63,458 nucleotides of DNA, filler included, from an uncultured Methanosarcinales archaeon (GCA_964608065.1; 6 parts of 6 records of this genome joined end to end with filler, not necessarily neighbours in it), one strand, 5' to 3'; shown: positions 11,132 to 38,597, counted from the whole stretch's first letter. A program made the numbers and translations. The notes: generated by a model from the sequence alone, not told the origin.

Positions 11132-11863
11132 ATGATAAAAGCAATATTATTTGATCTAGACATGACTTTGATAGATTTTATTAGAATGAAAAAAAAAGCA
11201 AGCAATGCAGCAGCAAGAGCTATGGTTAAAGCTGGATTAAGAATGAGTTTTAAGACAGCACAGAAAGAATTATTCAAGATTTATCTGAAAGATATTGAAG
11301 GAGACTATCCAATAACCAATTTTTTGAAAAAGTTCAATCATTATCATGAAAGAATTCTAGCAGCAGGAATAAACACATACCGCAAAGTTAAATACTTTTA
11401 TTTAAAACCATATCCAAAGGTGATTCCAACTCTGAAAGCATTGAAGAACTTAGGATTGAAGATTGGGATAGTGACAGATGCTCCAAGATTAAAGGCTTTT
11501 ACAAGATTAGATGAAATGGGCATTGCAGATTATTTTGATGTTGTTGTTGGATGGGAAGATACAGGAAGAACAAAGCCTAGCAAATTACCTTTTAGAAAAG
11601 CTCTAAAATTACTTAGATTAAAACCTAATCATGTTATGCACGTCGGAGATTATCCTGAAAGAGATATATTGGGGGCTAAAAGGGCTGGTTTAATAAGTTG
11701 TTTTGCATCTTATGGTTATTTAGGAAGAGGGAAAGTAGTCTGGGCAGATTATAGTATCAGGAAGTTTGAAGATGTTTTAGAGCTAGCTAAATTGTTGAAG
11801 AAAGGCCATAGTTTGAATAAGTATTCTGTTACAAAATGTCAAAAACCACCCATTATAAATTGA
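11132..11863 (+). CDS. HAD-superfamily hydrolase (subfamily IA)
   Basis: FDLDMTL, IVTD, KP, HVGDYPERDILGAKRAG; the C-terminal tail runs into a palindromic element. Confidence 0.92.
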   Translation: MIKAILFDLDMTLIDFIRMKKKASNAAARAMVKAGLRMSFKTAQKELFKIYLKDIEGDYPITNFLKKFNHYHERILAAGINTYRKVKYFYLKPYPKVIPTLKALKNLGLKIGIVTDAPRLKAFTRLDEMGIADYFDVVVGWEDTGRTKPSKLPFRKALKLLRLKPNHVMHVGDYPERDILGAKRAGLISCFASYGYLGRGKVVWADYSIRKFEDVLELAKLLKKGHSLNKYSVTKCQKPPIIN

Positions 11864-12010
11864 TGACATATTGCTATCGTAAATGTGAACAGTGGTTTTT
11901 GATCATACAAGGAAATCAAAGATTTCCTGTATCCTGAAAATCTATGATTTTCATGATGATCAGAAATTTTTACAACATTAATAGAAAAAAATGAAAATTT
12001 CTGACATTTT
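11833..12010. repeat. Multi-hairpin palindromic element (triloop hairpin family)
   Basis: Outer IR AAAATGTCA/TGACATTTT. Inner stems TCAAAAACCAC/GTGGTTTTTGA, GGAAATC-AAA-GATTTCC (11911-11927), TGAAAATC-TAT-GATTTTCA (11935-11953), TCAGAAATTTT/AAAATTTCTGA. Confidence 0.85.
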
Positions 12011-12058
12011 AAGAAACCTTTTTATATAATGATTTCTAATAGGTTATAGTATGAAAAG

Positions 12059-12158
12059 NNNNNNNNNNNNNNNNNNNNNNNNNNNNNNNNNNNNNNNNNN
12101 NNTTAATTAATTAANNNNNNNNNNNNNNNNNNNNNNNNNNNNNNNNNNNNNNNNNNNN
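12059..12158. other. Artificial contig spacer
   Basis: 44 N + TTAATTAATTAA + 44 N, repeated five times in the window. Confidence 0.98.
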
Positions 12159-13084
12159 TAACAGCTACAACCAATGAAAATTCAACTTGCAGAATCTCCA
12201 CAACAAGCCAAAACTACACTCAAATGAGCTCTGCAATGACACCAGATGCAGCTGGAACATCACACACTAACACAAGCTCAGGCTTAAGCGCTTCAACATC
12301 TTACACATTCTATGCCAGCTGTGAGGATATAGCTGGAAATGAAATGAATTCCTCGAGTTCAACAACATTTACAACATCTGCAGCAAGCACAACTAGTACT
12401 GGTGGCGGTGGAGGAGGCGGTTCTACTAGCAGCGAAACTTCTGTAGCAAAAAAATGGAGTATGTTCATGACAGGAAGAAACACAATGACCATCTCAAAAG
12501 ATGGAATAGCATTTACAGAATTAGTTATGACATCTACAAAACCAAAAAGTGATGTGGAAATAACAGTCGAAAAACTAAGCTCAAAACCAAGTTCTACTAC
12601 TGCTTTCAGCGACACTAATTATCAATATCTTGAAGTAACTAAGGAAAATATAAACGATACTGAATTAAGTAAAGCTGAGATTACATTTAAGGTTGAAAAA
12701 TCATGGCTCACTGAAAAAAGCATTAGTGAAGCAAATGTGAAACTTTATAGATACAGCTCAGATAAATGGAATGCGCTAGTTACAACAAAAACAAGCTCAG
12801 ACAGCACTTATACTTATTATAAAGCAACATCTCCAGGATTAAGCTATTTCGCAATAGGAGGTAAAAAAACAAGCGCTGCTGGAACTGCTAACGAAGTAAC
12901 AACCGAGGAAACAGAAGGAGAAGCTCCAACAACAGCAGGAGCTGCAGAAGAAAGTGAAGAGAAGGAAACTGCAGCAAAAAAATCAAAGCCATGGCTAATC
13001 TGGCTGATAATTGCAATAGTTGTAATAGCTTTATTAGCAATATTCTTTGTGTATCTCAGAAAACAGGAAGAAAAGCTCAGTTAG
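12159..13084 (+). CDS. PGF-pre-PGF domain surface protein, 5'-truncated by contig edge
   Basis: Ser/Thr-rich region, GGGGGGGS linker, YQYLEV...AEITFKVEKSWL...LYRY...SPGLSYFAIG, C-terminal TM helix. Confidence 0.85.
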
Positions 13085-13317
13085 TTTTTTTTTTTTTTTT
13101 TTTTTTATTTTTTTTTTTTTTTTTTAATATAAAATTTTTTTTTTTTAATTTTTAAATTCATTAGAAAAATAAAAANNNNNNNNNNTAAAAAATTTTTTTG
13201 TTTATTTCAAAAAAAAGGAAAAAAAGTTCGTTTATTTTTTTTTTTTTTTTTTTATTATTATTTTTATTTATTATTAATAGAAACCTTTTTATTCTAGAGT
13301 TTAAAACCCAATAGAAA

Positions 13318-13908
13318 ATGAAAAAAAAGAATATTAAAAAAATACTGAAAAAAACATGGCATTTTATATGGGAAGATGATTCTCTGCTTAGCTGGATTGT
13401 AAACATAATTCTTGCATTTATATTAATTAAATTCATAGTTTATCCTGGCCTTGGATTTATATTAACAACATCCCACCCTGTTGTTGCTGTTGTATCTGGC
13501 AGCATGGAACATAATGGTAATTTTGATAATTGGTGGCAATCTCATGAAAAATACTACAAGGAATTAGATATAAGCAAAGAGGATTTCATAAAATATAGTT
13601 TCAAAAACGGTTTTAACAAAGGAGATATCATGGTTCTAAAAGGTGTTAGTCCTGAAAAATTAGAGATAGGTAATGTGATTGTTTACACAATAGGCGGTAA
13701 AGATCCAATAATACACAGAGTAGTAAAAAAATGGTATAACGATAGTTATTATTTCCAGACAAAAGGGGATAATGTTGCTATTGTCCAAAGATTTGAACAA
13801 GAAATAAATGAAAAACAAGTAATAGGAAAAGCGCTTTTCAGAATTCCTTACTTAGGCTATATTAAAATCTGGTTTGTAGAACTTTTAAAGTTTATAGGTA
13901 TTGCATAA
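13318..13908 (+). CDS. Signal peptidase I (archaeal Sec11/SipW type)
   Basis: VVSGSMEH, KGD, PIIHRVV, TKGDN, IPYLGY (Ser/His type). Confidence 0.93.
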   Translation: MKKKNIKKILKKTWHFIWEDDSLLSWIVNIILAFILIKFIVYPGLGFILTTSHPVVAVVSGSMEHNGNFDNWWQSHEKYYKELDISKEDFIKYSFKNGFNKGDIMVLKGVSPEKLEIGNVIVYTIGGKDPIIHRVVKKWYNDSYYFQTKGDNVAIVQRFEQEINEKQVIGKALFRIPYLGYIKIWFVELLKFIGIA

Positions 13909-13909
13909 A

Positions 13910-14221
13910 ATGATATTTTGTCCTAAATGCGGTTCTTTGTTAAGGCCTAATAAAGAAAACAGAAAAATAGTAATATGTGGCTGCGGCTATAAATCTAAAA
14001 GTGAAGGTTTAGGCAAAATAAAAGAAGAAGTTAAACAAAAAAAAAATGTTGAAGTAGTTGACAAAGATATAGAAACACTGCCTTTAATGGATGCTGAATG
14101 CCCTAAATGCAGCCATAGAAAAGCATACTACCATCTTGTCCAGACAAGAGCTGCTGACGAACCAGAAACTAAGTTCTTGAGGTGCGAGAAGTGCAGACAC
14201 AGATGGAGAGACTATGATTAA
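13910..14221 (+). CDS. tfs: Transcription factor S (TFS/RpoM)
   Basis: FCPKCGS zinc ribbon; CPKC...QTRAADEPET...CEKC. Confidence 0.95.
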   Translation: MIFCPKCGSLLRPNKENRKIVICGCGYKSKSEGLGKIKEEVKQKKNVEVVDKDIETLPLMDAECPKCSHRKAYYHLVQTRAADEPETKFLRCEKCRHRWRDYD

Positions 14222-14453
14222 AGAATTAAAAAGAAAATCAACAATAAAGATTATAGTTAAGCCTAATTCTCCTAAAAACGAAATAAGATCATATGATAAA
14301 GAAAAATGCGCTTACAAAGTAAACATTAAAGCCCCTCCTGAAAAAGGCAAGGCAAATAAAGAAATAATTAAATTCTTCTCTAAATTATTAAAAAAAAAAA
14401 TTAATATAGTAAAAGGTCTGAAAAGCAGGGAAAAAATAATTAAGGCCTTTTAA
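14214..14453 (+). CDS. DUF167 (YggU) family protein
   Basis: VKPNS, KAPPEKGKANKE, GLKSREK. Confidence 0.9.
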   Translation: MIKELKRKSTIKIIVKPNSPKNEIRSYDKEKCAYKVNIKAPPEKGKANKEIIKFFSKLLKKKINIVKGLKSREKIIKAF

Positions 14454-14613
14454 TCCACTCTTCTTTTAATATATCAGTATGTTCTCCATAGTTCTTCGGC
14501 TCATACTTGTCTTCCTTTGGTTTATACTTTAACTTTTTCCTTACATCTGGATTCAACCATAGATATATTACAATTCCAATAAAAACAGCAAATCCTATTA
14601 TTGTCCAGTCCAT
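14440..14613 (-). CDS. Small single-TM membrane protein (57 aa)
   Basis: MDWTIIGFAVFIGIVIYLWLNP...; ATG at 14613 preferred. Confidence 0.65.
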   Translation of the reverse strand: MDWTIIGFAVFIGIVIYLWLNPDVRKKLKYKPKEDKYEPKNYGEHTDILKEEWIKRP

Positions 14614-14653
14614 AATAAAACTATAATCCTCTATCATATATAAATTTTGTTTT

Positions 14654-14761
14654 CTACATTCCAATAAGATAATTCTTTAAGAAATCTATTTCTTCATAAT
14701 CTTCATTCAGATGATATTGCCAGTATAAATTTGAGAATTGTTTATTTATTTTAATCTTCAC
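14654..14761 (-). CDS. Putative small ORF (35 aa, GTG start)
   Basis: MKIKINKQFSNLYWQYHLNEDYEEIDFLKNYLIGM; overlaps the upstream small ORF; GAGG motifs upstream. Confidence 0.35.
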   Translation of the reverse strand: MKIKINKQFSNLYWQYHLNEDYEEIDFLKNYLIGM

Positions 14762-14849
14762 TAACCTCTTCATCCTCTTCCATATATTTAGATAAAGTTT
14801 TATTATTGATTATTGCTTTGTAACTGATTGGTTTGGTTCTGTCTGTCAA
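14751..14849 (-). CDS. Putative small ORF (32 aa, TTG start)
   Basis: MTDRTKPISYKAIINNKTLSKYMEEDEEVSED; SD GAGGTG 6 nt upstream. Confidence 0.4.
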   Translation of the reverse strand: MTDRTKPISYKAIINNKTLSKYMEEDEEVSED

Positions 14850-14858
14850 CTGCCACAC

Positions 14859-14910
14859 CTCTTTTTACTTTGTAAAAGGAGACCAGAAAATTATGAAATA
14901 ATTTTCGCTG
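14859..14910. repeat. Tandem triloop hairpins (hairpin family)
   Basis: TTTTAC-TTT-GTAAAA and GAAAATTAT-GAA-ATAATTTTC next to the SD of the small ORF. Confidence 0.6.
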
Positions 14911-14913
14911 CCT

Positions 14914-14945
<32 letters not shown>

Positions 14946-15160
14946 GATTAAAAAGTTACCATTCCTACCTAAATATTGGGGGTGCTTTACCCAGAATTTC
15001 GATAGGAATGGCCGAATAAGATGTAATAATATGTATTTCCTAAAATAAAAATTAAAGCAAGGTAGTATTTAAGTTAAATTGAGATAAAAAGTATATATCT
15101 AAAAACCTAATGATTAGAACTATATAACCAAATGAAACATTAGTTTTTTTTGAGTAGTAT

Positions 15161-15664
15161 CTAACCAGCCTCAAACTGAAGTAGTGATGTTAGCTCATGT
15201 TTTACTATTTTTCCGTCGTCAGACTTTATTTTTATGTTTAAAGTTTTGAAAGAACTTGTTAAAAAAGTTAAATTCCAGACCTGCCCAACATCCAGATGCT
15301 GCAGTAAGATTATTGTTTTCATTGCCATTTCTCCTTTGTACTCTTTTTTCATAAGGTCTTTTGCCATCTCTAAAATTTTATCCAGACTTAATTTAACTTT
15401 TTTCAAATCTATCTCTTTTATCTTTTCTTTTTCCTTTCTGAAAATATCTTTTTCAGGAACCATCCTTATATCGTCTTTTTCAACTATAAAGGTAATCATC
15501 TTGTCTTTCTCAGAATTATAATAACCTATCTGCCATTCATCCCTGTTCGCAGGGTCCAGCATTTTAAAGCAATGCACCAGATAATAATTTTTATTGGAGT
15601 TTTTCCATTCCTTGAACTCAGAATCTGCTTCTATTTTCTTTTTTATAACATCTTTTATTTCCAT
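15161..15664 (-). CDS. Conserved hypothetical protein (PepSY-like C-terminus)
   Basis: EWQIGYY...WNLTF...NIKIKSDDGKIV. Confidence 0.7.
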   Translation of the reverse strand: MEIKDVIKKKIEADSEFKEWKNSNKNYYLVHCFKMLDPANRDEWQIGYYNSEKDKMITFIVEKDDIRMVPEKDIFRKEKEKIKEIDLKKVKLSLDKILEMAKDLMKKEYKGEMAMKTIILLQHLDVGQVWNLTFLTSSFKTLNIKIKSDDGKIVKHELTSLLQFEAG

Positions 15665-15736
15665 ATCAATTTCAAAAAAGATTAATATTTATATAGTTTG
15701 TGTTATTCTCAGGCTGCAATGGGAAAGGGTAAAAAA

Positions 15737-16678
15737 ATGTTGACAAATGCCATGGAATCCAATTTAAAAAAACAGCACTATGTTATTGCAGGAAAACATT
15801 CGGCTGTTAAAATATGCACTTGGACAAAAAGATCAATTAATGATGAAGACTTTTGCTATAAACAAAAATTTTACGGAATTAGGGCTCATTTATGCTGTCA
15901 GATGACAACAAGCATTGGCTGTCCAAACATGTGCGAGTTCTGCTGGAGAGATCATTCAACACCATATTCAACAAAATGGTTGTGGTCTTCAGATAACCCG
16001 GAAGATATACTAAAATTAGCTGTCGAAGGCCAAAGAAAACTTATTTCTGGATTTGGAGGCTCAAGCAAAGCAAACAAAATAAAATTAAAACAAGCTCGGA
16101 ATCCAAAACATTTTGCACTTTCTCTGATTGGAGAATCTATTATGTATCCAAAGATTAATGAATTCATCAAATTATTGCATAAGAAAGAAATCTCAACTTT
16201 CCTGGTTACAAAAGGACAGTTTCCAGAAAAACTGGCAAAACTAGAACCTGTTACCCAATTATATATTTCATTGGATGCTCCAAATAAAAAAGCATTCAAT
16301 AAACTGAATAAACCATTATTCAAAAATGGTTGGGAAAGATTATTGAAAAGCTTGGAAATAATGAAAACACTCAGGAATAAATCAAGAACAACAATAAGAC
16401 TAACATGCATCAAAGGCATTAATATGATTGAACTGGAAAATTATGCTAAATTATTAAAAAAATGCAATCCAATGTTTATTGAAGTTAAATCTTATATGTG
16501 GGTTGGAAGTTCCAGATCAAGATTAAAACAGGAAAACATGCCAACACACAAAGAAACAAAAGATTTTGCAAAAAAAATAGCTAAACTCATAAAATATAAA
16601 ATCATCGACGAAAAACCTAATTCCAGGGTTGTTTTACTTGCTAAGAAAGACTTTAAAGGAAGAAAGATGAAGTTCTAA
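15737..16678 (+). CDS. taw1: 4-demethylwyosine synthase (radical SAM, TYW1/Taw1)
   Basis: HSAVKICTWT, CYKQKFYGI, CPNMCEFCWR, FIEVKSYMWVGSS, SRVVLL. Confidence 0.93.
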   Translation: MLTNAMESNLKKQHYVIAGKHSAVKICTWTKRSINDEDFCYKQKFYGIRAHLCCQMTTSIGCPNMCEFCWRDHSTPYSTKWLWSSDNPEDILKLAVEGQRKLISGFGGSSKANKIKLKQARNPKHFALSLIGESIMYPKINEFIKLLHKKEISTFLVTKGQFPEKLAKLEPVTQLYISLDAPNKKAFNKLNKPLFKNGWERLLKSLEIMKTLRNKSRTTIRLTCIKGINMIELENYAKLLKKCNPMFIEVKSYMWVGSSRSRLKQENMPTHKETKDFAKKIAKLIKYKIIDEKPNSRVVLLAKKDFKGRKMKF

Positions 16679-17265
16679 ATAGTTATTAAGTTACCATAAG
16701 GCCCTGGATTTATAAGAAACATGCTGCCTATTTTGTCCTCTTTACCAGCATTCTCATGCAGATGCCCGCAAATAACTAAATCTACTTTATTGTTCTTAAT
16801 AAAACTCGTATAGCTTTTGTTCCCTGCATAATTTGCTCCAATTTTGTCTAATTTTGTTTTATATGGTGGCTGATGTGTAATCAAAATAACTTTTTGGTCT
16901 TTAATCTTTAGCTTTTTGCTCCATTTCTCAAATTCTTTGTCAACATCAGCAAATCCTCCTCCACCATAGCCAATAAATAAATAATTATCAATTTTATCAT
17001 AAGTTTGTTTATGCAGAGAATATACATTCATAAAATTAGAGCTTACTTTCCTTATATTTTCTTCAGATTCATGATTTCCAGGAATAATTAAAAAAGGAAT
17101 TTTGAATTTTGCTAATCTTTCAACAAAATAATCTAATTTCTGCTCAAATATACTTATATCTCCTGCACAGATTATCACATCTGGTTTCTTTAATTTTATA
17201 TTATGAACTAACCTCTTCAATGCCTTAAGACTTCCATGCATATCAACAAAAGCTAAAATCTTCAT
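16675..17265 (-). CDS. Metallophosphoesterase
   Basis: DMHG, AGD, PGNHE, THQPP, CGHLHE, INPG. Confidence 0.92.
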   Translation of the reverse strand: MKILAFVDMHGSLKALKRLVHNIKLKKPDVIICAGDISIFEQKLDYFVERLAKFKIPFLIIPGNHESEENIRKVSSNFMNVYSLHKQTYDKIDNYLFIGYGGGGFADVDKEFEKWSKKLKIKDQKVILITHQPPYKTKLDKIGANYAGNKSYTSFIKNNKVDLVICGHLHENAGKEDKIGSMFLINPGPYGNLITI

Positions 17266-17377
17266 ATTACTTTAGAATTAAATGGTTATATTTAATATTT
17301 ATCATTAAACATATTAATTACTTAATAATAGTTAAAATAGAAAGGTTTTTAAATTATTGCGTTATATTGCTCTCGAT

Positions 17378-17866
17378 ATGAAAAATAATCATGAATTAGA
17401 GGGTATTATTGAAGATAATATTAGATTATGGAGAAATCGACTTGAATTAACTGATAAAGCGCTATCACATATTATTCCAGATGAAGATATTCAAAAAGTT
17501 AGGCAAAACTCAAGCTATGAAGAAGAAGTGTTACTATACTATGCTAAGGTTAATGGAAAAAATTGTATATATCTTGTATCAAAGAGCACAATAAGTGAAA
17601 TAATAAGGAAGGCATCTAAAAATCCTGCGAGAACTGATTCATATAAAGATTTAATTAGTAAAATTGAGGGCACGTGTTATAAGAAAAAATTGAACAAGAA
17701 TGAAGATAAATATTCTATATTTCTTCCAAATATGCTGATGAAGCTTGCACAAATAAATCAAGGTTCATACTGTATGGCTACTAAACCTCCCAAAGGGGTT
17801 AGAGGAATCTTAATTTACAGTAAGAGTGTTTATAATAAATTAAGTGATGATCAAAAAAAAAAATAA
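17378..17866 (+). CDS. Hypothetical protein
   Basis: ORF after a GAAAGG-TTTTTAAA promoter-like box; no recognised family. Confidence 0.65.
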   Translation: MKNNHELEGIIEDNIRLWRNRLELTDKALSHIIPDEDIQKVRQNSSYEEEVLLYYAKVNGKNCIYLVSKSTISEIIRKASKNPARTDSYKDLISKIEGTCYKKKLNKNEDKYSIFLPNMLMKLAQINQGSYCMATKPPKGVRGILIYSKSVYNKLSDDQKKK

Positions 17867-17914
17867 CTAATCCGATACCTTTTTATATAAAGTTTGATTT
17901 TTAAAAAAAAAAAT

Positions 17915-20140: not shown

Positions 20141-20181
20141 GATTTATAAATTATGTTGGAATTGCTGTATCGGGGGGCAAT

Positions 20182-21198
20182 ATGCTGCACAATCACTTCA
20201 AAAAAATATTTACAAAATCAGATGTATTTACAGATATAATTGGACAGGAATTTGTAAAAAAACAAATTAAATCTGCTCTGCTTTCTAACCATCATGTTAT
20301 AATAGTTGGTGCTCCTGGTATTGGAAAGACAACTTTAGCTAAGAATATTTCTAGATTATTGCCAGAAATAGATTCTGTAAAAGATTGTGCTTATAATTGT
20401 GATCCTTCTGCTCCTATATGTCCTGAATGCAAGCAAAACAAGAATTTGAAAAAACACAAAATATCAGGAGAAAAAAGATTTATCAGAGTACAGGGAAGTC
20501 CTGATCTAACAGCAGAAGATTTAATTGGAGATATTGACCCTATCAAAGCTTTAAAATTCGGGCCATTAAGCTTGGAAGCATTTACACCTGGAAAAATATT
20601 TAAGGCAAATAGAGGAATATTATTCTTTGATGAAATTAACAGATGCCCTGAAAAACTGCATAATGCTTTATTGCAGTCATTAGAAGAAGGCCATGTAACA
20701 GTTGGAAGTTATGATGTAACCTTTCCAACTGATTTTATTTTTATAGGAACCATGAATCCTTACGATTCATCTACTGAAAGACTTTCTGATGTTTTTTTGG
20801 ACAGATTTGACTTAATCTATATGAATTATCCAGAAACTATTGAATTAGAAAAGGAAATAGTTGTTACAAAGGGGAAAACAATATTAGATTTTCCTGAAAA
20901 CTTGCTTCATTTAATGGTTTCTTTTGTAAGGTCATTAAGAGATGAAGGTAATCTGGAAAAAAAACCTTCTGTTAGAGCTTCTATTTACCTATATGAACGT
21001 GCGCAAAGTAATGCTTTATTGGATAACAGGGATAAAGTTAATTTTACAGATATTAAAGAAGCAATCATCTCTGTTTTATCCCATAGGATAAGCTTAAAAC
21101 CTTCTGCTAAATATCTGAAAAAACCTGAAGAATTTGTAAAAGAACAGTTTGATAATTTTACTAAAGACTTCAAAGATGAAAGAGATGATTTACTTTAG
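20182..21198 (+). CDS. ChlI/BchI-like AAA+ ATPase
   Basis: IIGQE, GAPGIGKT, C-x-YNC-P insert, ANRGILFFDEINR, GTMNP, LDRF. Confidence 0.88.
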   Translation: MLHNHFKKIFTKSDVFTDIIGQEFVKKQIKSALLSNHHVIIVGAPGIGKTTLAKNISRLLPEIDSVKDCAYNCDPSAPICPECKQNKNLKKHKISGEKRFIRVQGSPDLTAEDLIGDIDPIKALKFGPLSLEAFTPGKIFKANRGILFFDEINRCPEKLHNALLQSLEEGHVTVGSYDVTFPTDFIFIGTMNPYDSSTERLSDVFLDRFDLIYMNYPETIELEKEIVVTKGKTILDFPENLLHLMVSFVRSLRDEGNLEKKPSVRASIYLYERAQSNALLDNRDKVNFTDIKEAIISVLSHRISLKPSAKYLKKPEEFVKEQFDNFTKDFKDERDDLL

Positions 21199-25537: not shown

Positions 25538-25538
25538 A

Positions 25539-30322: not shown

Positions 30323-30323
30323 T

Positions 30324-30470
30324 TTATATTTTGATTATGTTAATCATTTCTTTTTCTTTTTTTATTTTTTCATTATTTAGATTTATTTCAATAACATCTT
30401 GTTTTTGAAGCATTCTTTCAGCTCCCTCTATAGTCACACCCATTAGTTCTGCAAATTCATTTAACTTCAT
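30324..30470 (-). CDS. Small hypothetical protein (48 aa, possible HTH)
   Basis: MKLNEFAELMGVTIEGAERML...; SD GGAGGT upstream of ATG 30470. Confidence 0.6.
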   Translation of the reverse strand: MKLNEFAELMGVTIEGAERMLQKQDVIEINLNNEKIKKEKEMINIIKI

Positions 30471-30475
30471 CTGTT

Positions 30476-30571
30476 TCGACCTCCTGTCGGAATCCAAAGA
30501 AATGCATTGCATTTCTTGGACACCGGAAATCTCTGATTTCCCAGTGCATTGAAAATCATTAAGATTTTCAT
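30476..30571. repeat. Triloop hairpin cluster between abrB and the small ORF
   Basis: AAGAAATGC-ATT-GCATTTCTT, GGAAATC-TCT-GATTTCC (30525-30541), TGAAAATC-ATTAA-GATTTTCA, CGAC-CTCCT-GTCG. Confidence 0.85.
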
Positions 30572-30771
30572 TTGATCACCTTCTTCCTTATAAGATCCAA
30601 TAGTTCTTTTTGATTAACTAATTCTTTGACTGCAATAAGAATATCATCAACCTCATACCAATAAATCTCAGAATTAAGGTCTATACCTAAATCTTGCCTT
30701 GCTTCATTCGGCAGTGTTACTTGCCCTTGCTTTGTAAGCTTTGCTTTTCCTATGAATTTGATGTTGGTAAT
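30568..30771 (-). CDS. AbrB/MazE/SpoVT DNA-binding protein (not in ORF track; probable ATT start)
   Basis: (M)TNIKFIGKAKLTKQGQVTLPNEARQDLGIDLNSEIYWYEVDDILIAVKE...; SD GAGGTG 8 nt before ATT; in-frame TAG TAA immediately upstream. Confidence 0.85.
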   Translation of the reverse strand: MTNIKFIGKAKLTKQGQVTLPNEARQDLGIDLNSEIYWYEVDDILIAVKELVNQKELLDLIRKKVIK

Positions 30772-30869
30772 TTACTAAACACCTCAATTATTAATATTAA
30801 TAATCATATTACTTATCTTAATATTATTAGAAGTAATAATTAGTATTTAAAGGTTTTGGTTTTACCTGC

Positions 30870-30900
<31 letters not shown>

Positions 30901-31005
30901 TTGGGGCAGAAAAAAAAAAAAAAAAAAAAATGATAGCTTTTTGTGTGCAAGATAAGAAAGATTTAAATAATAATCCTTGCCACTAATAATACTTCCTAGG
31001 GGGGA

Positions 31006-32142
31006 GTGATAAATATGCTGGATAAAACAGTAAACAAAATATGGAAAAAGATAATGATTGGCGGAAGCCTGATTTTGCTAACAGCCCAAGCCATAGGTGC
31101 TTATGACAACAAAACAATTTATCATGAATATAACAGCAGTGCAAGAAGTGTTGAGCCTATTGAGAATTCTATTCATCAGCAGGAAGAACAGAAAACAGCT
31201 GAATACCTTGCAGCCATGGACCCAAAAAAAACCATTGATGATAAGATAAGGCTGCTTGAGACTTATGTAAATAAATGGAATGGTTCCCAGTATCATCATT
31301 ATGCTTATGCTGAACTTGCATACAGTTACCAAAGCAAACAAAACTTTGATAAAATAATTGTCCATGGAGATAAAGCACTTGTATACAAGGAGCTTAATGA
31401 CAAAGATAGAACCCGTGTGTTATTGTGTGTTGCCAATGCTTATGCATCCAGCCAGAAAAACCAGAACTTGGATAAAGCAAAGAATTATATTGATAGGTCG
31501 TATCAGATAGCAGATGCCCATAAAAATGAACAAGAATGGGGTGCTCTTTATAATTTAACGAAAAATGCAAAAACAGCAATTAATAATTTTATAAACCAGC
31601 AAAACAAGGTAAAAACCCCACCCCCACCTAGTGCATATACCTATCATAATGAAAAGAATTATACCATGGCTGAGCAGGAATTTGCAAAAATGAATGATAA
31701 TAGTGCCAAATTTAGTTATTATTATGGCAGAACCTTGTTTTTTACTAAGAAATATGATATGTCCATAGAAAATCTTGTGACTGCAAGTGTCATGGACTCT
31801 GAAAAAAACTATCCAAAAGCATTGGAAACAGCCAAAAGCATATTCTTAAACCATATATACAAGGACTCTACAGGAAAGAATTATAACACCCTTATAGAAG
31901 AATCTAGTAAGCGTACAAACGCTGAGATTGCAATACTGAACAAGAAATTTAATGAGAAATGGCCAGAAGGAAAAGAGCTCACAGAAGAAGAGGAAGCAGT
32001 GTACAAGGCTGAGCTAAAAATTCTGAAAAGAGATATTGAAATAGAGGAGAATGATGTAATGGCTTATCACAGCCAGCTGCAGGAAAAAGCAAATAAGGCT
32101 TTTAATGACATTGTTAATCGTATCAAGCAAAAAATAAAATAA
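31006..32142 (+). CDS. Secreted TPR-repeat protein
   Basis: Signal-peptide-like N-terminus, helical TPR-like segments, PPPP linker. Confidence 0.75.
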   Translation: MINMLDKTVNKIWKKIMIGGSLILLTAQAIGAYDNKTIYHEYNSSARSVEPIENSIHQQEEQKTAEYLAAMDPKKTIDDKIRLLETYVNKWNGSQYHHYAYAELAYSYQSKQNFDKIIVHGDKALVYKELNDKDRTRVLLCVANAYASSQKNQNLDKAKNYIDRSYQIADAHKNEQEWGALYNLTKNAKTAINNFINQQNKVKTPPPPSAYTYHNEKNYTMAEQEFAKMNDNSAKFSYYYGRTLFFTKKYDMSIENLVTASVMDSEKNYPKALETAKSIFLNHIYKDSTGKNYNTLIEESSKRTNAEIAILNKKFNEKWPEGKELTEEEEAVYKAELKILKRDIEIEENDVMAYHSQLQEKANKAFNDIVNRIKQKIK

Positions 32143-32162
32143 GGAATACATGTGATTCTAAA

Positions 32163-32813
32163 ATGAAAAAAATATCACAAGGAGCAGAAGCAATCATTTA
32201 CTTAGATAAAGATATAATCAAAGACAGGATAAGAAAAAACTACAGAATCAAAGAGATAGATGAACCTTTGAGAAAGTTCAGGACAAAAAGAGAAGCAAAA
32301 ATATTAGAAAAACTAGCTTTAATCAATTTTCCTTCTCCAAAACTAATCAGATTAGATAAATATAAAATAGTTATGAAAGAAATAAAAGGAAAAAAAATAA
32401 GAGATGTTCTTGAAAAAAAAGATTTTCTAAAATTAAGCAAAGAAATTGGAAAAAAAATAGCTATACTCCATAACAACAACATTATCCATGGTGATTTAAC
32501 AACTTCAAACATGATCTTAGAGAATGAAATTTTTTTTATTGATGCTGGGAAATCAAAGATTTCCGGCATCTCTAAAAAAAACAAAGTTTTTTTTATAGAT
32601 TTCGGCCTATCTTACTTCTCTCATAAAACAGAAGATAGGGCAGTTGATCTGCATCTATTAAAACAAGCATTAGAATCTAAACACTATAAAGTTTGGGATA
32701 AATGTTTTAAATCAGCACTGCAAAGCTATAAATCTAATGCTGATAATTCTAAAGAAACATTACAAAGATTAGAGCAAGTAGAAGGAAGAGGAAGGTATAA
32801 GGGTAAGAATTAA
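32163..32813 (+). CDS. bud32: KEOPS kinase Bud32 (with 19-aa in-frame insertion)
   Basis: QGAEA, RTKREAK, IIHGDLTTSN, IDFGL, EDRAVDL, RGRY. Confidence 0.96.
   Translation: MKKISQGAEAIIYLDKDIIKDRIRKNYRIKEIDEPLRKFRTKREAKILEKLALINFPSPKLIRLDKYKIVMKEIKGKKIRDVLEKKDFLKLSKEIGKKIAILHNNNIIHGDLTTSNMILENEIFFIDAGKSKISGISKKNKVFFIDFGLSYFSHKTEDRAVDLHLLKQALESKHYKVWDKCFKSALQSYKSNADNSKETLQRLEQVEGRGRYKGKN
32541..32570 (+). repeat. Triloop hairpin element inside the bud32 coding sequence
   Basis: GATGCTG-GGAAATC-AAA-GATTTCC-GGCATC, flanked by near-direct repeats TTTTTTATTGAT / TTTTTTATAGAT 57 nt apart. Confidence 0.88.
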
Positions 32814-32817
32814 TTTT

Positions 32818-33579
32818 CTATTTTAATGATAATGGTGCAAGCTCTTGAGTTAAATATATCTGGCTATTTTTATGCTTTTGCAGATATGAAGCAGGAACTT
32901 TACCAGTTACTGGTCCATGAATAATTTCTTCCATAATCCCTGATAATTTATCTTTATTAGTTCCTATACCTATCGTTCTTTTTACATCCATTATAGTGCC
33001 AATACCCATTGTTATTGCATGAGTAGGAACATTTTGAATTCCTCCAAAATCATCTTCAGCATCTTCTCTAGTACTGTCAGCTAACTCTATTAATCTTGTT
33101 CTAGAATCTTCATCAGAACTTTCTTCGCAAAATGCAATATGACCTTTACTTCCAAACCCATGTAATAATAAGTCAATACCTCCATATTTTTCTATTTTAG
33201 CTTCATATTTTTTGCAGTATTTTTCCACATTCCTCTTCTTTCTGCCATTCATCAAATGAAGATTCCTTTTCTTTATGTTTACATGATTGAATAAATTTTC
33301 CTTGAGGTATCTATTATAACTTTGAGGATGATTAGGTTTAAGACCATAATATTCATCTAGATTGAATGCAATAACATTTGAGAAATCAATCTTTCCTTTA
33401 TCATACCATTCTCTTAACTTTGCATAAATTGGTAATTGAGTATTTCCAGTTGGAAAAGCAATAACTGCTTTTTCTCCTTTTTGATTCTTTTCCTTTATTA
33501 CATCAGCTATCTCCTTTACAACAGATTCAGCAATATCATCTACATTATCTTTTACTATTACTTCTAATCCATTACTCAT
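32818..33579 (-). CDS. nagB: Glucosamine-6-phosphate deaminase
   Basis: FPTGNTQ, FNLDEY, HPQSY, GGIDL, GHIAF, AITMGIGTI, PASYLQKH. Confidence 0.93.
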   Translation of the reverse strand: MSNGLEVIVKDNVDDIAESVVKEIADVIKEKNQKGEKAVIAFPTGNTQLPIYAKLREWYDKGKIDFSNVIAFNLDEYYGLKPNHPQSYNRYLKENLFNHVNIKKRNLHLMNGRKKRNVEKYCKKYEAKIEKYGGIDLLLHGFGSKGHIAFCEESSDEDSRTRLIELADSTREDAEDDFGGIQNVPTHAITMGIGTIMDVKRTIGIGTNKDKLSGIMEEIIHGPVTGKVPASYLQKHKNSQIYLTQELAPLSLK

Positions 33580-33828
33580 TTTTATTCACTTTAATCTATG
33601 AAAACAAATATCAGCTTTTAAATCTTTTTATTTTTACTATCCTATAATAGTTATAAAACCCATAAAAACAAAAGCCTTAAATATATGTTATACTTTCTTC
33701 AACAATGAATTAAAATGGCAAGAGATGATCGTATTCATTGTGAGCAAATTTACTTCTAATTTAATTAGTTCTAACTCTAAATTAATTTCCCAAAACTTTA
33801 TAAACAAATATAGTTTAAATTATCTAAA

Positions 33829-34790
33829 ATGAAACTTCAACTACCAAAAGGAACAAGGGATTTCCCGCCTGAAGAAAAGATTGTAAGGGATAAGATAGTT
33901 GAAACTCTAAAACAAGCATTTGAATTATTTGGTTATTCTCCTTTGGAAACTCCAACTTTTGAAAGATTTGATGTTTTATCATCTAAATTCACAGGAGGAG
34001 AAGAAATTCTAAGGGAAACCTTCAAGTTCAAGGATCAAGGAAATAGAGAACTAGGACTAAAATATGATCTGACAGTACCAATGTGCAGATTCATAGCTAT
34101 GAACCCTAATATTAAGATGCCTTTCAAAAGATATCAGATTGAAAATGTTTACAGAGATGGTCCAACAGGAACAGCAAGATACAGACAATTCCTGCAATGC
34201 GATGCAGATGTTGTTGGATGCAAAGAACTGTTAGCAGATGCTGAAATCATCTCATTATTGGATTTCGCTTTTAAAAAATTAGGATTCAGCTTCACAATCA
34301 AAGTAAACAACAGGAAATTATTGAATGAGATATTAGCTGATTGCGGTGTTAAAGAAAACGATTTTGAGACAGTTATATTATCAATAGATAAATTAGAGAA
34401 ATTCGGAGAAAAAGTTGTTAAAGACGAACTAAAACAAAAAGGAATCAAAGAAGAGGCAATAAAAAAGATTATAAAAACAATAAACATTAAAGGAAACAAT
34501 AAAGAAAAAATAAAAAAAATTAAAGATTCAGAAGGATTAAAAGAAATTAAAGAACTGTTAAACTATCTAGATATTATGAATGTAAAGGTTGAATTTGACA
34601 TCAGCCTTGCTCGTGGCTTAGCTTACTACACAGGCCCTGTTTTTGAAGTTATTCTAAAGAACTCTTCAATCAAATCAAGTGTTGCAGGTGGTGGGAGATA
34701 TGATAAAATGATTGGAGGTTTATTAGGATCTAAACAAGAATATCCTTCAACAGGTGTTAGTTTTGGTGTAGACAGAATCTTTGATGCTTA
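33829..34790 (+). CDS. hisS: Histidyl-tRNA synthetase, 3'-truncated by contig edge
   Basis: PKGTRDF, YDLTVP, RYRQFLQCDAD, ARGLAYYTG, AGGGRYD, GVSFGVDRI. Confidence 0.96.
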
Positions 34791-34890
34791 NNNNNNNNNN
34801 NNNNNNNNNNNNNNNNNNNNNNNNNNNNNNNNNNTTAATTAATTAANNNNNNNNNNNNNNNNNNNNNNNNNNNNNNNNNNNNNNNNNNNN
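34791..34890. other. Artificial contig spacer
   Basis: N + TTAATTAATTAA + N. Confidence 0.98.
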
Positions 34891-34995
34891 CTGCTATAAG
34901 TTTCATAAAATATAATCCAGAATTAGATAATATATAAATGTTACTTGCAAGTTTATGAAAAACTATATAAACCAATAAAAACAGACTTTTAACCT

Positions 34996-35934
34996 ATGTT
35001 AGAAATTATTTTATTTATCTTAGGAGTATTAGGAATATGGTTCTTTGCAGGATTAGTGGTAGATGCTGCTCAAAGAATAGCTAAGCATTTCAATATTTCA
35101 GAAGAATTCATTGGATTAACAATATTATCAATAGGAACCTCATTGCCAGAGATATTTACACACATTATAGCCAGTATTGATATCCTTAAAGGGATAGATG
35201 CTTCAGGTTTAGCTGTAGGAACGAACATTGGCTCAAATATAATACAGATAACATTTGTTCTAGGTTTTATAGCGTTGCTGACAAAAGTCCATTCTGATAA
35301 AAAGATATTAAAAAGAGATTATTTAGTTATGCTTGGTTCAATTTTATTATTATTTTTACTATCTTTAAATTCAACAATTTCAAGAGCAGAAGGGATATTC
35401 ATTACTGCAGCTTATATTGTTTATTTAATAATGATAGCAAGAAAGGAAAAGGTTATTGAAAGAAACAAATTCAAGACAGACTTGTTAAGAGATAGTTTAT
35501 TTATAATAGTTGGAATTGTGGCTTTATTGTATTCTGCAAATCTGGTTGTCAGTAATGCATTAAAAATATCAAGCTTATGGAATTTATCAGGGTCGTTTAT
35601 AGGAACAGTTATAGTGGGAGTGGGCACTGCATTGCCTGAAATGACAGTTGCATTAAGAGCTATACTAAAAGGCTCAACTGGAATCTCATTAGGAACATTA
35701 ATCGGAAGTAATATCACAAACCCAATGTTTGCATTAGGTATTGGAGCAATCATCTCAGGTTATAAAATAAGTCCTGTATTGCTTTATTTTGATTTACCAT
35801 TCTGGTTTGCAGTTTCATTAATAGCATTATATTTCTTCTGGAGAAAATTAAAGTTCGAGAAAAAAGAAGCAATAGTCATGATAATATTGTATATAATTTA
35901 TGTTTTAGTTAAATTAAAGTTCTTTATGCATTAA
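34996..35934 (+). CDS. Ca2+/Na+ antiporter (CaCA family)
   Basis: GTSLPE/GSNI and GTALPE/GSNI alpha repeats. Confidence 0.93.
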   Translation: MLEIILFILGVLGIWFFAGLVVDAAQRIAKHFNISEEFIGLTILSIGTSLPEIFTHIIASIDILKGIDASGLAVGTNIGSNIIQITFVLGFIALLTKVHSDKKILKRDYLVMLGSILLLFLLSLNSTISRAEGIFITAAYIVYLIMIARKEKVIERNKFKTDLLRDSLFIIVGIVALLYSANLVVSNALKISSLWNLSGSFIGTVIVGVGTALPEMTVALRAILKGSTGISLGTLIGSNITNPMFALGIGAIISGYKISPVLLYFDLPFWFAVSLIALYFFWRKLKFEKKEAIVMIILYIIYVLVKLKFFMH

Positions 35935-36346
35935 GATTTTTCTTTTTCAAAGCCAAAGGAGGTCTTCTGAACTCTTTTAACCACATCAATCCAATTCTTA
36001 TCATCTCTTTCTGGAATTTGTCACTAATTCTATATGTTTTCTTGTATAGATCATAATCTATTATACCCATTGATTTCATTGGAGTCAATATCCTGTCATA
36101 AAATTGTCTTTTATTATAAGAAAGTTTTACTTTTTTTCCTTTGTATGGCTCTTCATCTATTTCTGTAACTAAGTCTCCATTATGCAGTTTAGTAGCAAAC
36201 TCTGACATTTCAGGTTTTGTAACTTCTCCTTGTTTTTTCTTAATGTAATCAATCAAAACTTTACCTACGATCTTTTGCTGAGAAGTAGCAAAAACTATTT
36301 CAAATATATCCTCTGGTAAATTAAACTGGTCAAATAAAATTACCAA
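35924..36346 (-). CDS. Conserved hypothetical protein (wHTH-like)
   Basis: YNKRQFYDRILTPMKSMGIIDY...KTYRIS; TTG start with SD GGGGGTG. Confidence 0.75.
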   Translation of the reverse strand: MVILFDQFNLPEDIFEIVFATSQQKIVGKVLIDYIKKKQGEVTKPEMSEFATKLHNGDLVTEIDEEPYKGKKVKLSYNKRQFYDRILTPMKSMGIIDYDLYKKTYRISDKFQKEMIRIGLMWLKEFRRPPLALKKKNLNA

Positions 36347-36504
36347 ATTTACACCCCCTAAATAAACAAAGAAAGAATTCTAGTATATAAATATTATGGT
36401 TTAGTATACTAAAGCTGATTTTGGTATAATTAGATATTATATAGTGAGGGATAGTCTTTTGTTTAAATAAGCAAAATCAAAACATTTAAATATAAGTTAT
36501 TCTA

Positions 36505-36521
36505 TACCATATAGTATGGTA
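36505..36521. promoter_or_regulatory. Palindromic putative operator overlapping the TA start codon
   Basis: TACCATA-TAG-TATGGTA between a TTTAAATA box and ATG 36516. Confidence 0.55.
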
Positions 36522-36800
36522 GAACTAGTATTTGAACATAAGCATATACATAAAAATTACATAGTTGATATTAAAATTTACAAAGTACAAAAAGATAGGT
36601 TTCATCCAGAAGGGTTCAAATATTCGCTTGTATTGATCAAAGACGGAAAAAGAATATTATGTTATGACAACCATGAAAAAAGAGGTCATCATATTCATAG
36701 AGGCTCTAGAGAATCACCTTATGAATTTATAGATGAATGGAAATTAATTGAAGATTTCCAAAAAGACGTTGATAATATTACTAGAGGTGAAATAAAATGA
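36516..36800 (+). CDS. DUF6516 family putative toxin
   Basis: PEGFKYSLVL...RILCYDNHEKRGHHIH...YEF...LIEDF. Confidence 0.8.
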   Translation: MVELVFEHKHIHKNYIVDIKIYKVQKDRFHPEGFKYSLVLIKDGKRILCYDNHEKRGHHIHRGSRESPYEFIDEWKLIEDFQKDVDNITRGEIK

Positions 36801-37177
36801 AAATAAAAAACATTATAGTTGAAATAAAACCTTTGAAAGATGTTTTGAAAGAAGCAGCTGAAGTTATGGAAGATGTAAAGGGGGGTAAAAATGTTAAAAA
36901 AAAGGGTTTAAGTTTTAATAGTGTAGTATCTTTTAGAGAATTCTTTACTCCAAGAAGAATTGAATTATTGCAAGTGATTAAACATAAACAACCTAAATCA
37001 GTATATGAATTAGCTAAATTAACAAACAGGCAAATTAAAAGTGTTGTTGTAGATCTGGATATACTAGTTAAATATGGTTTACTAGAAACAAAAAAAATTA
37101 CTGTTAAAGGTAAGACTGGTTACAAAGTAAAACCAATTTTTGATTATGATAAATTAACAGTTGATATTGCTATGTGA
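36797..37177 (+). CDS. HVO_A0114-like HTH protein, putative antitoxin
   Basis: LSFNS...FTPRRIELL...PKSVYELAKLTNR...VVVDL; ATGA overlap with DUF6516. Confidence 0.8.
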   Translation: MKIKNIIVEIKPLKDVLKEAAEVMEDVKGGKNVKKKGLSFNSVVSFREFFTPRRIELLQVIKHKQPKSVYELAKLTNRQIKSVVVDLDILVKYGLLETKKITVKGKTGYKVKPIFDYDKLTVDIAM

Positions 37178-37191
37178 TTTTTTATTTTTAT

Positions 37192-38538
37192 TTATTTAAA
37201 CTTCATCCCAGGCATATTTCCCTGGAATTTCTTCATCATCTTGTCCATTCCTTTGCCTTTCATCATCTTTACCATCTTTTTTCCCTGTCTATACTGTTTG
37301 ATTAGTTCTCTAACATCTTTTGTAGAAATACCAGAACCTTTAGATATTCTGTCAATTCTAGAAGCATCTAATATTTCAGGATCTTCAAGTTCTTCTTTAG
37401 TCATACCCTGCATTGCAATTTTCCATTTTTCTAATTTACCTTCCTGAACCTGTAAAGCTTCTTTTGGCATCTTGATTTGAGATAAACCTGGAACCATTTC
37501 CATGATCTTATTCAAAGGACCCATTTGTCTCATTGCTTTCATCTGCTCGTATAAATCTATAAGATTAAAATCACCTTTTAACAACCTTTTTCCTAAATCT
37601 TCTGCATCTTCTTCTTTTATCACTTCTTTTGCTTTTTCCAGTAAAGCTTCTAAATCGCCCATTCCTAATAATCTTGAAACAAAGCCTTGTGGATTGAATC
37701 GCTCTAGGTCATTGATTTGTTCTCCAACTCCAATGAACTTGATTGGAGCTTTTGTCACAGCACATGCAGATAATGCTCCTCCTCCCTTAGCAGTTCCATC
37801 CATTTTTGTTGCTACAACACCAGTTATTCCACAGGATTTATGGAATTGCTCTGCTTGTTTTTGAGCAGCTTGTCCTATGTCTGCGCTTATTACTAATAAA
37901 TTTTCATCTGGCTTTACTTTTTCATTAACTGTTTCTATTTCCTCAATTAAATCCTTAGATAAAGCATCTCTTCCAGCAGTATCTATGATAAGAACATCAA
38001 ATTTTTTGTATTCATCTTTGAATTCATTCCATACTTCGATTACGTCTTTTTCCTTTTTGTTTATATAATATGGAACTTTGGCTTTCTTAGCTATTTGCTG
38101 AAGCTGGTCCATAGCGGCTGGCCTATGTATGTCTAATCCGACTAATGCAACTTTATGGCCTCTTGTAGTAAAGAATCTGGCTAGTTTTCCAGCTGTGGTT
38201 GTTTTTCCACTTCCGAATAAACCCACCAACATTATTTTAAAGGGTTTTTTTTTTATTTCTATCTTATGACCTTCTCCACCTAAGAAATTGACTAATTCAT
38301 CATAAACTATTTTTATTAACTGCTCTTTCTTGCTTAATGCTCTAGAATCTTCTTTTAAAGCTCTTTCTTTGATTTTTTTAGTTAGTTCAAATACTAACTG
38401 AACATTAACATCTGATTGTAATAGTGCTTTTTGGATATCTTTAATTAGTTCATTGATTAGTTTTTCATCTACAAAAACTGATTTTGCAATCTTTTGCAAA
38501 GTTCCTTTTAATGAATCTCCTAGTTTTTCTAGTACCAT
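37192..38538 (-). CDS. srp54: Signal recognition particle 54 kDa protein
   Basis: ALLQSDVN, GLFGSGKTT, DTAGR, TKMDGTAKGGG, RLLGMGD, M-domain. Confidence 0.97.
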   Translation of the reverse strand: MVLEKLGDSLKGTLQKIAKSVFVDEKLINELIKDIQKALLQSDVNVQLVFELTKKIKERALKEDSRALSKKEQLIKIVYDELVNFLGGEGHKIEIKKKPFKIMLVGLFGSGKTTTAGKLARFFTTRGHKVALVGLDIHRPAAMDQLQQIAKKAKVPYYINKKEKDVIEVWNEFKDEYKKFDVLIIDTAGRDALSKDLIEEIETVNEKVKPDENLLVISADIGQAAQKQAEQFHKSCGITGVVATKMDGTAKGGGALSACAVTKAPIKFIGVGEQINDLERFNPQGFVSRLLGMGDLEALLEKAKEVIKEEDAEDLGKRLLKGDFNLIDLYEQMKAMRQMGPLNKIMEMVPGLSQIKMPKEALQVQEGKLEKWKIAMQGMTKEELEDPEILDASRIDRISKGSGISTKDVRELIKQYRQGKKMVKMMKGKGMDKMMKKFQGNMPGMKFK

Positions 38539-38539
38539 C

Positions 38540-38597
38540 AGAAATCACCTCCTTGTGATTTCTGGGGTTCCAAAAATCTCCGATTTTTCTGAACCAT
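38540..38597. repeat. Hairpin pair upstream of srp54
   Basis: Minus strand: GGTTCAGAAAAATC-GGA-GATTTTTGGAACC, then CAGAAATCAC-AAGGAG-GTGATTTCTG containing the SD. Confidence 0.8.

Follow-up and report, generated by a model that had tools for sequence, protein, structure and literature searches.

Miniature hairpin modules that probably form a dispersed palindromic repeat family in an uncultured archaeon and its woesearchaeal relatives

The 63,458-base stretch of assembly GCA_964608065.1 analysed here (the window), which comes from an archaeon recorded as an uncultured member of the Methanosarcinales, carries arrays of short A/T-rich hairpins centred on the motif GGAAATC-N3-GATTTCC. These hairpins probably belong to a dispersed, lineage-wide family of miniature palindromic repeat modules, which behaves like the REP (repetitive extragenic palindromic) sequences and bacterial interspersed mosaic elements (BIMEs) and like the Rickettsia palindromic elements (RPEs). 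This reading draws on identical cores at unlinked sites, a lineage-specific subfamily and the unrelated contexts of the copies, on their tendency to sit in harmless places, on insertions that have clear bounds and direct repeats, on patchy presence among close relatives and on compensatory changes in the stems. Each module consists of a stem of 7-10 bp, A-rich in its 5' arm and T-rich in its 3' arm, with a closing C-G pair and a loop of mostly 3 nucleotides (nt); a variable lower stem, with one additional base on the 5' side, often extends it, and modules form chains of 2-4 that are spaced ~25-27 nt apart. Copies gather where harm is small, in intergenic spacers, a tRNA intron and protein surface loops that are read in frame, and close relatives differ through gains and losses of copies. 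As a single piece of evidence, the strongest is the copy at 32548, inside the gene for the kinase Bud32, a point that was not made in the initial annotation of this DNA.

The window comprises six contigs glued together by artificial N44-TTAATTAATTAA-N44 spacers and has a G+C content of ~30%. The closest relatives of its proteins are named Candidatus Woesearchaeota or Nanoarchaeota in the public records, and the DPANN host proposed in the initial annotation is thus a reasonable placement. Relatives were sampled by a scan based on a Bud32 alignment, which gave 80 loci (L-numbers) totalling 1.04 Mb, while a scan with a single Bud32 sequence gave nothing.

Abundance, pairing and arrangement of the hairpins

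Exact copies of GGAAATC-N3-GATTTCC lie at all four positions at which the 17-mer had been annotated (11911, 24695, 30525 and 32548, with plus-strand loops AAA, TTT, TCT and AAA, respectively), compared with 0.00 expected from 100 dinucleotide-preserving shuffles of the window. The excess extends to AAATC-N3-GATTT (7 copies, 0.37 expected), to RRAAATC-N3-GATTTYY with at most one mismatch (8 versus 1.11) and to perfect triloop hairpins in which the A-rich arm comes first (5 versus 0.34). The comparison with a shuffled background for which the initial annotation had called therefore gives counts far beyond chance. The clustering that it described is likewise non-random in its own right, there being four tandem pairs of perfect triloop hairpins 18-34 nt apart compared with 0.0 in 100 simulations. 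Arrays of two or three A-rich/T-rich triloop hairpins occupy six places on contigs 1-4 of the six; the distribution over four contigs thus holds for the wider family, whereas the exact 17-mer is confined to contigs 1 and 3. Similarly, perfect hairpins of 7-9 bp are confirmed for the related stems listed at 11935, 14886, 24669, 30497, 30550 and 38572, but that at 14863 (TTTTAC/GTAAAA) has merely 6 bp and is of a sequence type other than GAAATC. The listing of perfect hairpins also gives a related stem at 38539.

The pairing of the modules, rather than a fixed sequence, is conserved, as had been suggested from two copies. These copies, at 30523-30544 (reverse complement) and 32545-32566, do share a 22-mer in which the middle loop base is the sole difference, and in their outer stems two pairs are exchanged, one from A-T to G-C and the other from C-G to T-A. 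In an alignment of 21 copies 87.9% of cells are paired, compared with 77.2% after shuffling, and none of 500 shuffles reached the observed percentage or the covariation score; sliding the partners gave at most 58.9% paired. Watson-Crick pairing holds at the two variable positions of the upper stem in 20 of 21 and 21 of 21 copies, figures that lean towards pairing, the copies having been picked by the R/Y pattern and the structure derived from the same copies, and a lower-stem pair between columns 7 and 30 is formed in every copy by five pair types. The extra base reported in the 5' arm is present at 11905-11932, 32541-32570 and 38566-38595, in the last as part of a 2x1 internal loop, and a one-base bulge of this arm is seen in the predicted folds. 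On the gene-sense strand all six arrays fold well below shuffled controls (z -3.3 to -4.5); array B, for which no sense strand can be named, gave z -3.6 on the plus and -2.1 on the minus strand.

A covariance model of the 21 copies found 10 distinct sites in the window, six of them seeds, and, at E<0.05, 20 distinct sites in 15 of the 80 loci, comprising 15 seeds and five new sites. The density of these sites in the window is ~8-fold that in the relatives, and 24 of the 30 are intergenic, although ORFs (open reading frames) occupy ~85% of the DNA and intergenic sequence ~15%. The relatives also contain 15 copies of RRAAATC-N3-GATTTYY (0.35 expected), 23 perfect triloop hairpins with the A-rich arm first (4.4 expected) and 13 tandem pairs (0.4 expected). 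By reading, ~20 of the 71 hairpin chains listed were assigned to the family; their arms often start with TCAGAAA or GAAAA, their linkers are short and of the form G...CC, and their period is again ~25-27 nt. Arms reading GAAAATC recur at unrelated sites in seven genomes. The GGAAATC arm, with four copies in the 63-kb window and none in the 1.04 Mb of relatives, is a lineage-specific subfamily.

Occurrence in related Woesearchaeota of the DPANN group, for which the initial annotation had proposed a scan, is therefore borne out, in the form of arrays at non-orthologous intergenic sites in 15 of the 80 loci. The genes of the window found in the loci were those for Bud32 (80 of 80), histidyl-tRNA synthetase (HisRS; 35), the HAD-family protein (16) and SRP54 (2), and the BatA/MoxR operon was found in none of the 80. 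Since the only synteny in common with the window is Bud32-HisRS, the arrays are at unrelated sites, and orthology between those of the window and those of the relatives is not supported. Within the S3Ae/tRNA-Gln/Bud32 neighbourhood of the loci, arrays lie upstream of S3Ae (L013 and L025), 3' of the tRNA (L005) or in a tRNA intron (L011), or are absent.

Copies inside genes and their empty counterparts

In Bud32, two copies of a direct repeat 57 nt apart bracket a 43-nt insert, and the site carries two hairpins (Table 1). The nearest empty gene, that of L001, reads ...GAA ATT TTT TTT ATA GAT TTT GGT... at this site, and the same sequence is present twice in the window. At the protein level this is a 19-residue insertion just before the DFG motif, which the closest homologues do not have. 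In an AlphaFold model based on 30 homologues (mean predicted local distance difference test score, pLDDT, 87.4), pLDDT falls below 50 over residues 122-138, which correspond to the insert, and nowhere else, and the second FFIDFG copy holds the normal strand position; in this model the insert is an add-on to the protein.

Of the 120 best Bud32 homologues, 10 carry an insert reading KSxISG together with a duplicated I-x-F-I-D. In a tree from which the insert columns were left out (made by a quick method, with support from the Shimodaira-Hasegawa-like approximate likelihood ratio test only), its distribution requires seven changes of state, at least four of which are forced by well-supported branches, and several carriers are sisters of non-carriers. 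Among the carriers the residue encoded by the loop varies (K, M or S), as does that encoded at the bulged base (G or R), and the residues encoded by the stem stay the same, a pattern that a constraint on the hairpin would be expected to give. The exact KSxISG insertion occurs in none of the 80 loci, and the L039 Bud32 contains GKNLISKK, which looks like a decayed remnant. A different, G+C-richer palindrome, which reads ASELRS..RTRSQL, occupies the same loop in L022 (1602-1700), L028 (9375-9470), P0114 and P0116. The pre-DFG loop of Bud32 appears to take palindromic inserts repeatedly.

Further genic copies have empty counterparts. The N-terminal loop of the L024 Bud32 contains 54 extra nt, which form two hairpins and read as HENQRFSGHRKSKGFSSV; in P0004 and P0006 an insert in the same loop includes LGNRKKKRFP, which resembles, and may be related to, the LGNQRFPV encoded by a hairpin of array D in the window. 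In a HAD-like gene of L057, 14-15 additional residues (KSKIFGTNSAGNKK) surround a CAAAAATC-GAA-GATTTTTG hairpin; they are absent from all four orthologues and are flanked by a direct repeat, TAATAAAAAA, of at least 10 nt. Exact repeats of at least 10 nt were present at 11 of ~3,000 background sites. With the window Bud32, these cases make good the proposal of RPE-like, in-frame genic insertions that are present or absent at comparable sites.

The L011 orthologue of tRNA-Gln(CTG) (9353-9485), a gene missed by ARAGORN and by Rfam, contains a copy within an intron at the canonical position. This anticodon-loop intron is 45 nt long and includes GAAAATC-AGA-GATTTTC; among the eight tRNA genes aligned, L030 has a 16-nt intron and the other six have none. 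The gene also carries a 15-nt insertion in the D-loop relative to the intact orthologues of L005, L015, L042 and L055, alignment to which fixed its boundaries, brute-force removal of segments for ARAGORN being too permissive. Overall, the inserted segments are 43-57 nt and are built from hairpins of 17-30 nt. The archaeal bulge-helix-bulge motif, in which a 4-bp helix lies between two 3-nt bulges, is not seen in the fold of the Bud32 insert or of any array; these have a 1-nt bulge or a 2x1 loop instead.

Arrays of the window and neighbouring features

The five intergenic arrays are listed in Table 1 with gene contexts taken from Pfam matches. Hairpin 1 of array A begins 42 nt past the stop codon of the HAD hydrolase gene, and the arms of the third stem are those of a triloop hairpin in L007 (3061-3085). 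Array B is the weakest member of the family (17.1 bits, E 0.043). Array C contains GGAAATC-AAA-GATTTCC, TTTGAAAAC-AGG-GTTTTCAAA and a third, imperfect copy within an outer GGUAC... helix that closes all three, and the hairpins of array D are TGAAAATC-TTAAT-GATTTTCA, GGAAATC-AGA-GATTTCC and AAGAAATGC-AAT-GCATTTCTT. In array E a Shine-Dalgarno-like sequence, GGAGGTGA, falls within the loop and 3' arm of hairpin 2, which, judged from the sequence, could occlude ribosome binding at SRP54.

Table 1. Positions of the hairpin modules, the Bud32 insertion and the joined contigs within the window
Feature	Position	Strand	Description
Bud32 gene	32163-32813	+	KEOPS kinase, 216 amino acids; most homologues ~197-205 amino acids
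Bud32 insertion	32530-32600	+	In-frame 57-nt insertion with flanking repeats
Bud32 direct repeat, first copy	32530-32543		TTTTTTTTATTGAT
Bud32 direct repeat, second copy	32587-32600		TTTTTTTTATAGAT; 13 of 14 positions match the first copy
Bud32 hairpin 1	32541-32570	+	Core 32548-32564; GGG AAA TCA AAG ATT TCC GGC, read as GKSKISG
Bud32 hairpin 2	32573-32595	+	TAAAAAAAAC-AAA-GTTTTTTTTA; inserted A8 run pairs with native T8 run
Array A	11905-12008	+	After HAD hydrolase gene (11132-11863)
Array A hairpin 1	11905-11932	+	5-bp lower stem, bulged A in 5' arm, upper stem GGAAATC/GATTTCC, loop AAA
Array A hairpin 2	11935-11953	+	TGAAAATC-TAT-GATTTTCA
Array A third stem	11955-12008	+	Arms TCAGAAATTTT and AAAATTTCTGA, long loop
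Array B	14859-14906		Between plus- and minus-strand genes; 10-bp stem around TTTTAC-TTT-GTAAAA, then GAAAATTAT-GAA-ATAATTTTC
Array C	24648-24725	-	Spacer between DUF7502 gene stop (24743) and MoxR ATPase gene start (~24620)
Array D	30489-30570	-	Three hairpins upstream of BatA/VWA operon
Array E	38539-38595	-	Fills the 60-nt spacer from fumarase-beta stop to SRP54 start
Array E hairpin 1	38566-38595	-	GGTTC-AG-AAAAATC-GGA-GATTTTT-G-GAACC
Array E hairpin 2	38539-38564	-	CAGAAATCAC-AAGGAG-GTGATTTCTG; 26.9 bits; abuts SRP54 ATG
Possible decayed copy	52491-52507	-	AGAAATC-AGA-GATTTAT; 18.6 bits, E 0.017; in ORF of probable 1221-residue surface protein, in frame as KKSEIY
Contig 1	1-12058		
Contig 2	12159-23568		
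Contig 3	23669-34790		
Contig 4	34891-46012		
Contig 5	46113-56476		
Contig 6	56577-63458		
Artificial spacers	12059-12158, 23569-23668, 34791-34890, 46013-46112, 56477-56576		

Known RNAs do not account for the window arrays. ARAGORN found no tRNA beneath them, a search for T-arm motifs gave 23 matches compared with 21.3 expected, and Rfam 15 gave no match in the window at the gathering score and none at E<=1 in 14400-15200 or in L011 9200-9600, results on which a tRNA or other known RNA under the window arrays was rejected. A C/D-box small RNA was considered at array A, where ATGATGA (11954) and CTGA (12001) lie ~50 nt apart. It was ruled out, since the supposed guide regions are a mutual 11-bp inverted repeat and the related copy in L076 lacks the box. 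The format of an intrinsic terminator, in which a T run directly follows a hairpin, is found in array B alone (14886-14906) and in none of the other five arrays.

Several neighbouring features were recorded in passing. Directly after array B a run of 13 T is followed by (GTTT)n-like repeats (14907-14950). A putative 34-codon ORF (30467-30571, minus strand), whose reading includes LGNQRFPV, spans the whole of array D; it has a good Shine-Dalgarno-like GGTGAT, and its end overlaps the start of the next small ORF. Two adjacent small genes at 36516-37177, matching the toxin TumE (PF20126) and HVO_A0114 (PF25212), are probably a toxin-antitoxin pair, and residues 3-61 of the adenylosuccinate lyase ORF at 3690-5345 match weakly to HVO_A0114 (PF25212), the family of the putative antitoxin (36797-37177). 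Between 47109 and 55268, ORFs of 1373 and 1221 amino acids with Big_9, cadherin-like and PKD domains, which probably encode surface proteins, flank an ORF of 124 amino acids. In addition to the artificial spacers, a 10-N scaffold gap is located at 13176-13185. Among the loci, the GyrB gene of L010 (13513-15894) contains an intein (PF14890, residues 435-591), and those of L011 and L013 do not.

Relation to known repeats, rival explanations and mode of spread

The initial annotation had proposed an archaeal counterpart of REP and RPE repeats. What stands of this is a real dispersed family that behaves in a REP- and RPE-like manner; the tie to REP and to its REP-associated tyrosine transposase (RAYT) is not supported by the DNA examined. 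According to PMC3733652, REPs have stems of 5-13 bp, short loops and sometimes bulges, and are clustered, mostly extragenic with some intragenic copies, plausibly transcribed and of uneven abundance in related genomes; a conserved unpaired GTAG/CGTC marks one end. The archaeal modules share all of these features but the last, and like REPs they are imperfect palindromes of short length (20-40 bp) that are repeated, often clustered and mostly extragenic. In contrast to the G+C-rich stems of REPs, however, those of the archaeal modules are A/T-rich and are arranged as head-to-tail chains of unlike hairpins. When the 21 copies are aligned with 10-nt flanks, the invariant columns are stem positions 13-17 and 21-25 only, with no GTAG/CGTC, and no Y1/HUH gene, and hence no RAYT, was seen among the 60 ORFs scanned in the window and the 75 that flank arrays in the loci.

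RPEs, as described in the parts of PMC2229807 that deal with their structure and insertion sites, are 105-146 bp elements with 12-bp terminal inverted repeats, located between genes, in frame in protein genes and within RNA genes. To judge from these descriptions (PMC2229807), the likeness lies in in-frame insertion into conserved genes, the absence of the insert from orthologues, its toleration as a surface add-on and its presence in RNA genes as well; on the same account (PMC2229807), the differences are the size of the modules (~20-30 nt, 43-57 nt per insertion), the lack of any sequence relation and the phylum of the host. Indeed, as there is no GTAG/CGTC tag, no RAYT gene was seen in the DNA scanned and the units are several-fold smaller than RPEs, the hairpin family is not a member of REP/BIME or RPE. 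The miniature inverted-repeat type of transposable element (MITE) resembles it in being non-autonomous and dispersed, with inverted repeats, and in the direct repeats that flank the two bounded genic insertions. The unit, however, is several-fold smaller than a MITE, no parental insertion sequence that shares its ends is known, and a target-site duplication of 10-14 nt would be a long one, with no such direct repeats detectable at the intergenic arrays. As an archaeal precedent, longer palindromic repeats, a few of them within coding regions, were reportedly described in the euryarchaeal methanogen Methanocaldococcus jannaschii by Suyama et al. in 2005. Full-text searches of open-access papers found no description of palindromic or hairpin repeats in DPANN archaea or Woesearchaeota.

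Several observations weigh against a dispersed repeat family. The initial statement that the window lacks a mobiliser is upheld: none of its 60 ORFs (36 + 24, with Bud32 and the ORFs lacking a Pfam match rescanned) matches a transposase, integrase or reverse transcriptase family, nor does any of the 75 that adjoin 23 arrays of the loci. In size, the unit falls far below a typical MITE or RPE. Flanking repeats are 14 nt (13 of 14 matching) and at least 10 nt at the two bounded genic insertions, and those of the intergenic arrays are no better than background. The peptide of the Bud32 insert is conserved about as well as its host protein, and for the distribution in Bud32 a single ancient insertion, later lost several times and precisely between the direct repeats, is therefore at least as good an explanation as repeated insertion. 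Finally, 15 of the 20 scorable model matches lie on the sense strand (of a credible gene or between co-directional ORFs), and the sense strand folds more stably in all five window arrays compared, a strand bias that hints at a constraint at the RNA level for which purely selfish DNA would have no need.

It could be argued from this bias that the hairpins are primarily RNA-level cis elements, the alternative named in the initial annotation, such as stabilisers against exonucleases, signals for operon processing or insulation, or sites for RNA-binding proteins, and that their dispersal reflects repeated recruitment. The sense-strand matches include all four genic copies, the advantage of the sense fold is 1.0-5.2 kcal/mol, and T.G pairs are present in sense-strand lower stems. 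Arrays sit in short spacers of co-directional genes and, in L005, L029 and L010, 29-67 nt 3' of tRNA genes, and one hairpin holds the Shine-Dalgarno-like sequence of SRP54. The purine loop said to mark the gene strand is found in five of the six core window copies, but not in that at 11936, whose loop is TAT; it should be emphasized, however, that sense strands are purine-rich anyway in these genomes, which would weaken the argument from the loops. Furthermore, the position of the hairpins relative to genes varies (5' or 3' of a gene, or in the gap of a divergent or a convergent pair), their presence within a syntenic neighbourhood is sporadic, a role in RNA is hard to picture for copies inside coding sequence and a tRNA intron, and no Rfam family matches them. 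Because the positions are not conserved, an RNA element is a poor primary explanation, and we consider it unlikely in that form; a secondary role in RNA is possible.

A second alternative is that spread occurs without any transposase, the hairpin stalling replication and template switching or slippage carrying it into A/T-rich sites, and that the copy in the essential Bud32 gene has long been kept by selection on the nucleotide palindrome rather than the peptide and is the likely source of the GGAAATC subfamily. Such spread would account for the length of the direct repeats, for the lack of a mobiliser and for chains in which the hairpins differ. As a complete account, in which the history of the Bud32 copy is included, it is improbable.

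It is doubtful, and on balance quite improbable, that each hairpin arose locally, through fold-back or template-switch errors that made it from the neighbouring A/T-rich sequence with no descent from a source. The second Bud32 hairpin does pair a native T8 run, its 3' arm, with the inserted A8 run, its 5' arm (inverted flank match, p=0.003), in L013 each of the two hairpins is an inverted copy of the other, even in the loop, the 15-nt D-loop insertion of L011 pairs with adjoining native sequence, and the stems in general are very diverse but perfectly paired. Local origin is, however, at odds with the identical 17-mers and the common 22-mer at unlinked loci, with the same GAAAATC arms at unrelated sites in seven genomes and with the recurrence of G...CC linkers and of the spacing across arrays. 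Similarity of an insert to its own flank was, moreover, non-significant in seven of eight tests (p 0.10-0.57), so that derivation of the inserts from their flanks is not supported, the A8/T8 arm excepted. That the palindromes are operators, at which a dimeric transcription factor would control a regulon, as their classic 7-N3-7 inverted-repeat format and the several copies upstream of genes might suggest, is rejected as extremely improbable, given arms that vary by compensatory changes rather than keeping one sequence, one-sided bulges in the lower stems, copies within coding sequence, within a tRNA intron and 3' to genes, and downstream genes (MoxR, BatA, SRP54 and others) without a common function.

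For the dispersed family that we favour, copies would arise by copy-and-paste of a short hairpin, with a 10-14 nt A/T-rich target apparently duplicated in the two insertions that have defined bounds. The mobilising activity could lie with a transposase whose gene is in another part of the genome or, equally, with replication stalled at the hairpin and template switching or slippage; the long direct repeats, and the lack of repeats above background at intergenic arrays, leave room for both routes. The flanking direct repeats would permit the precise loss of copies. Transcribed modules would fold in the RNA, and some may secondarily affect mRNA stability or translation, the copy at the ribosome-binding site of SRP54 being a candidate.

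Bacteria offer well-documented cases, REP and RPE, of small palindromic repeats that enter coding regions. A repeat that proliferates is unexpected in genomes so small and streamlined as those considered here. The hairpin repeat is a marker of recent genome dynamics and a likely cause of contig breaks, array A lying within ~150 nt, and the array of L049 within 20 nt, of a contig end. Conserved proteins such as Bud32 also acquire from it lineage-specific peptide inserts that could lead annotation and alignment astray, and the repeat would serve as a compact system in which to study the spread of hairpin repeats without an evident transposase.

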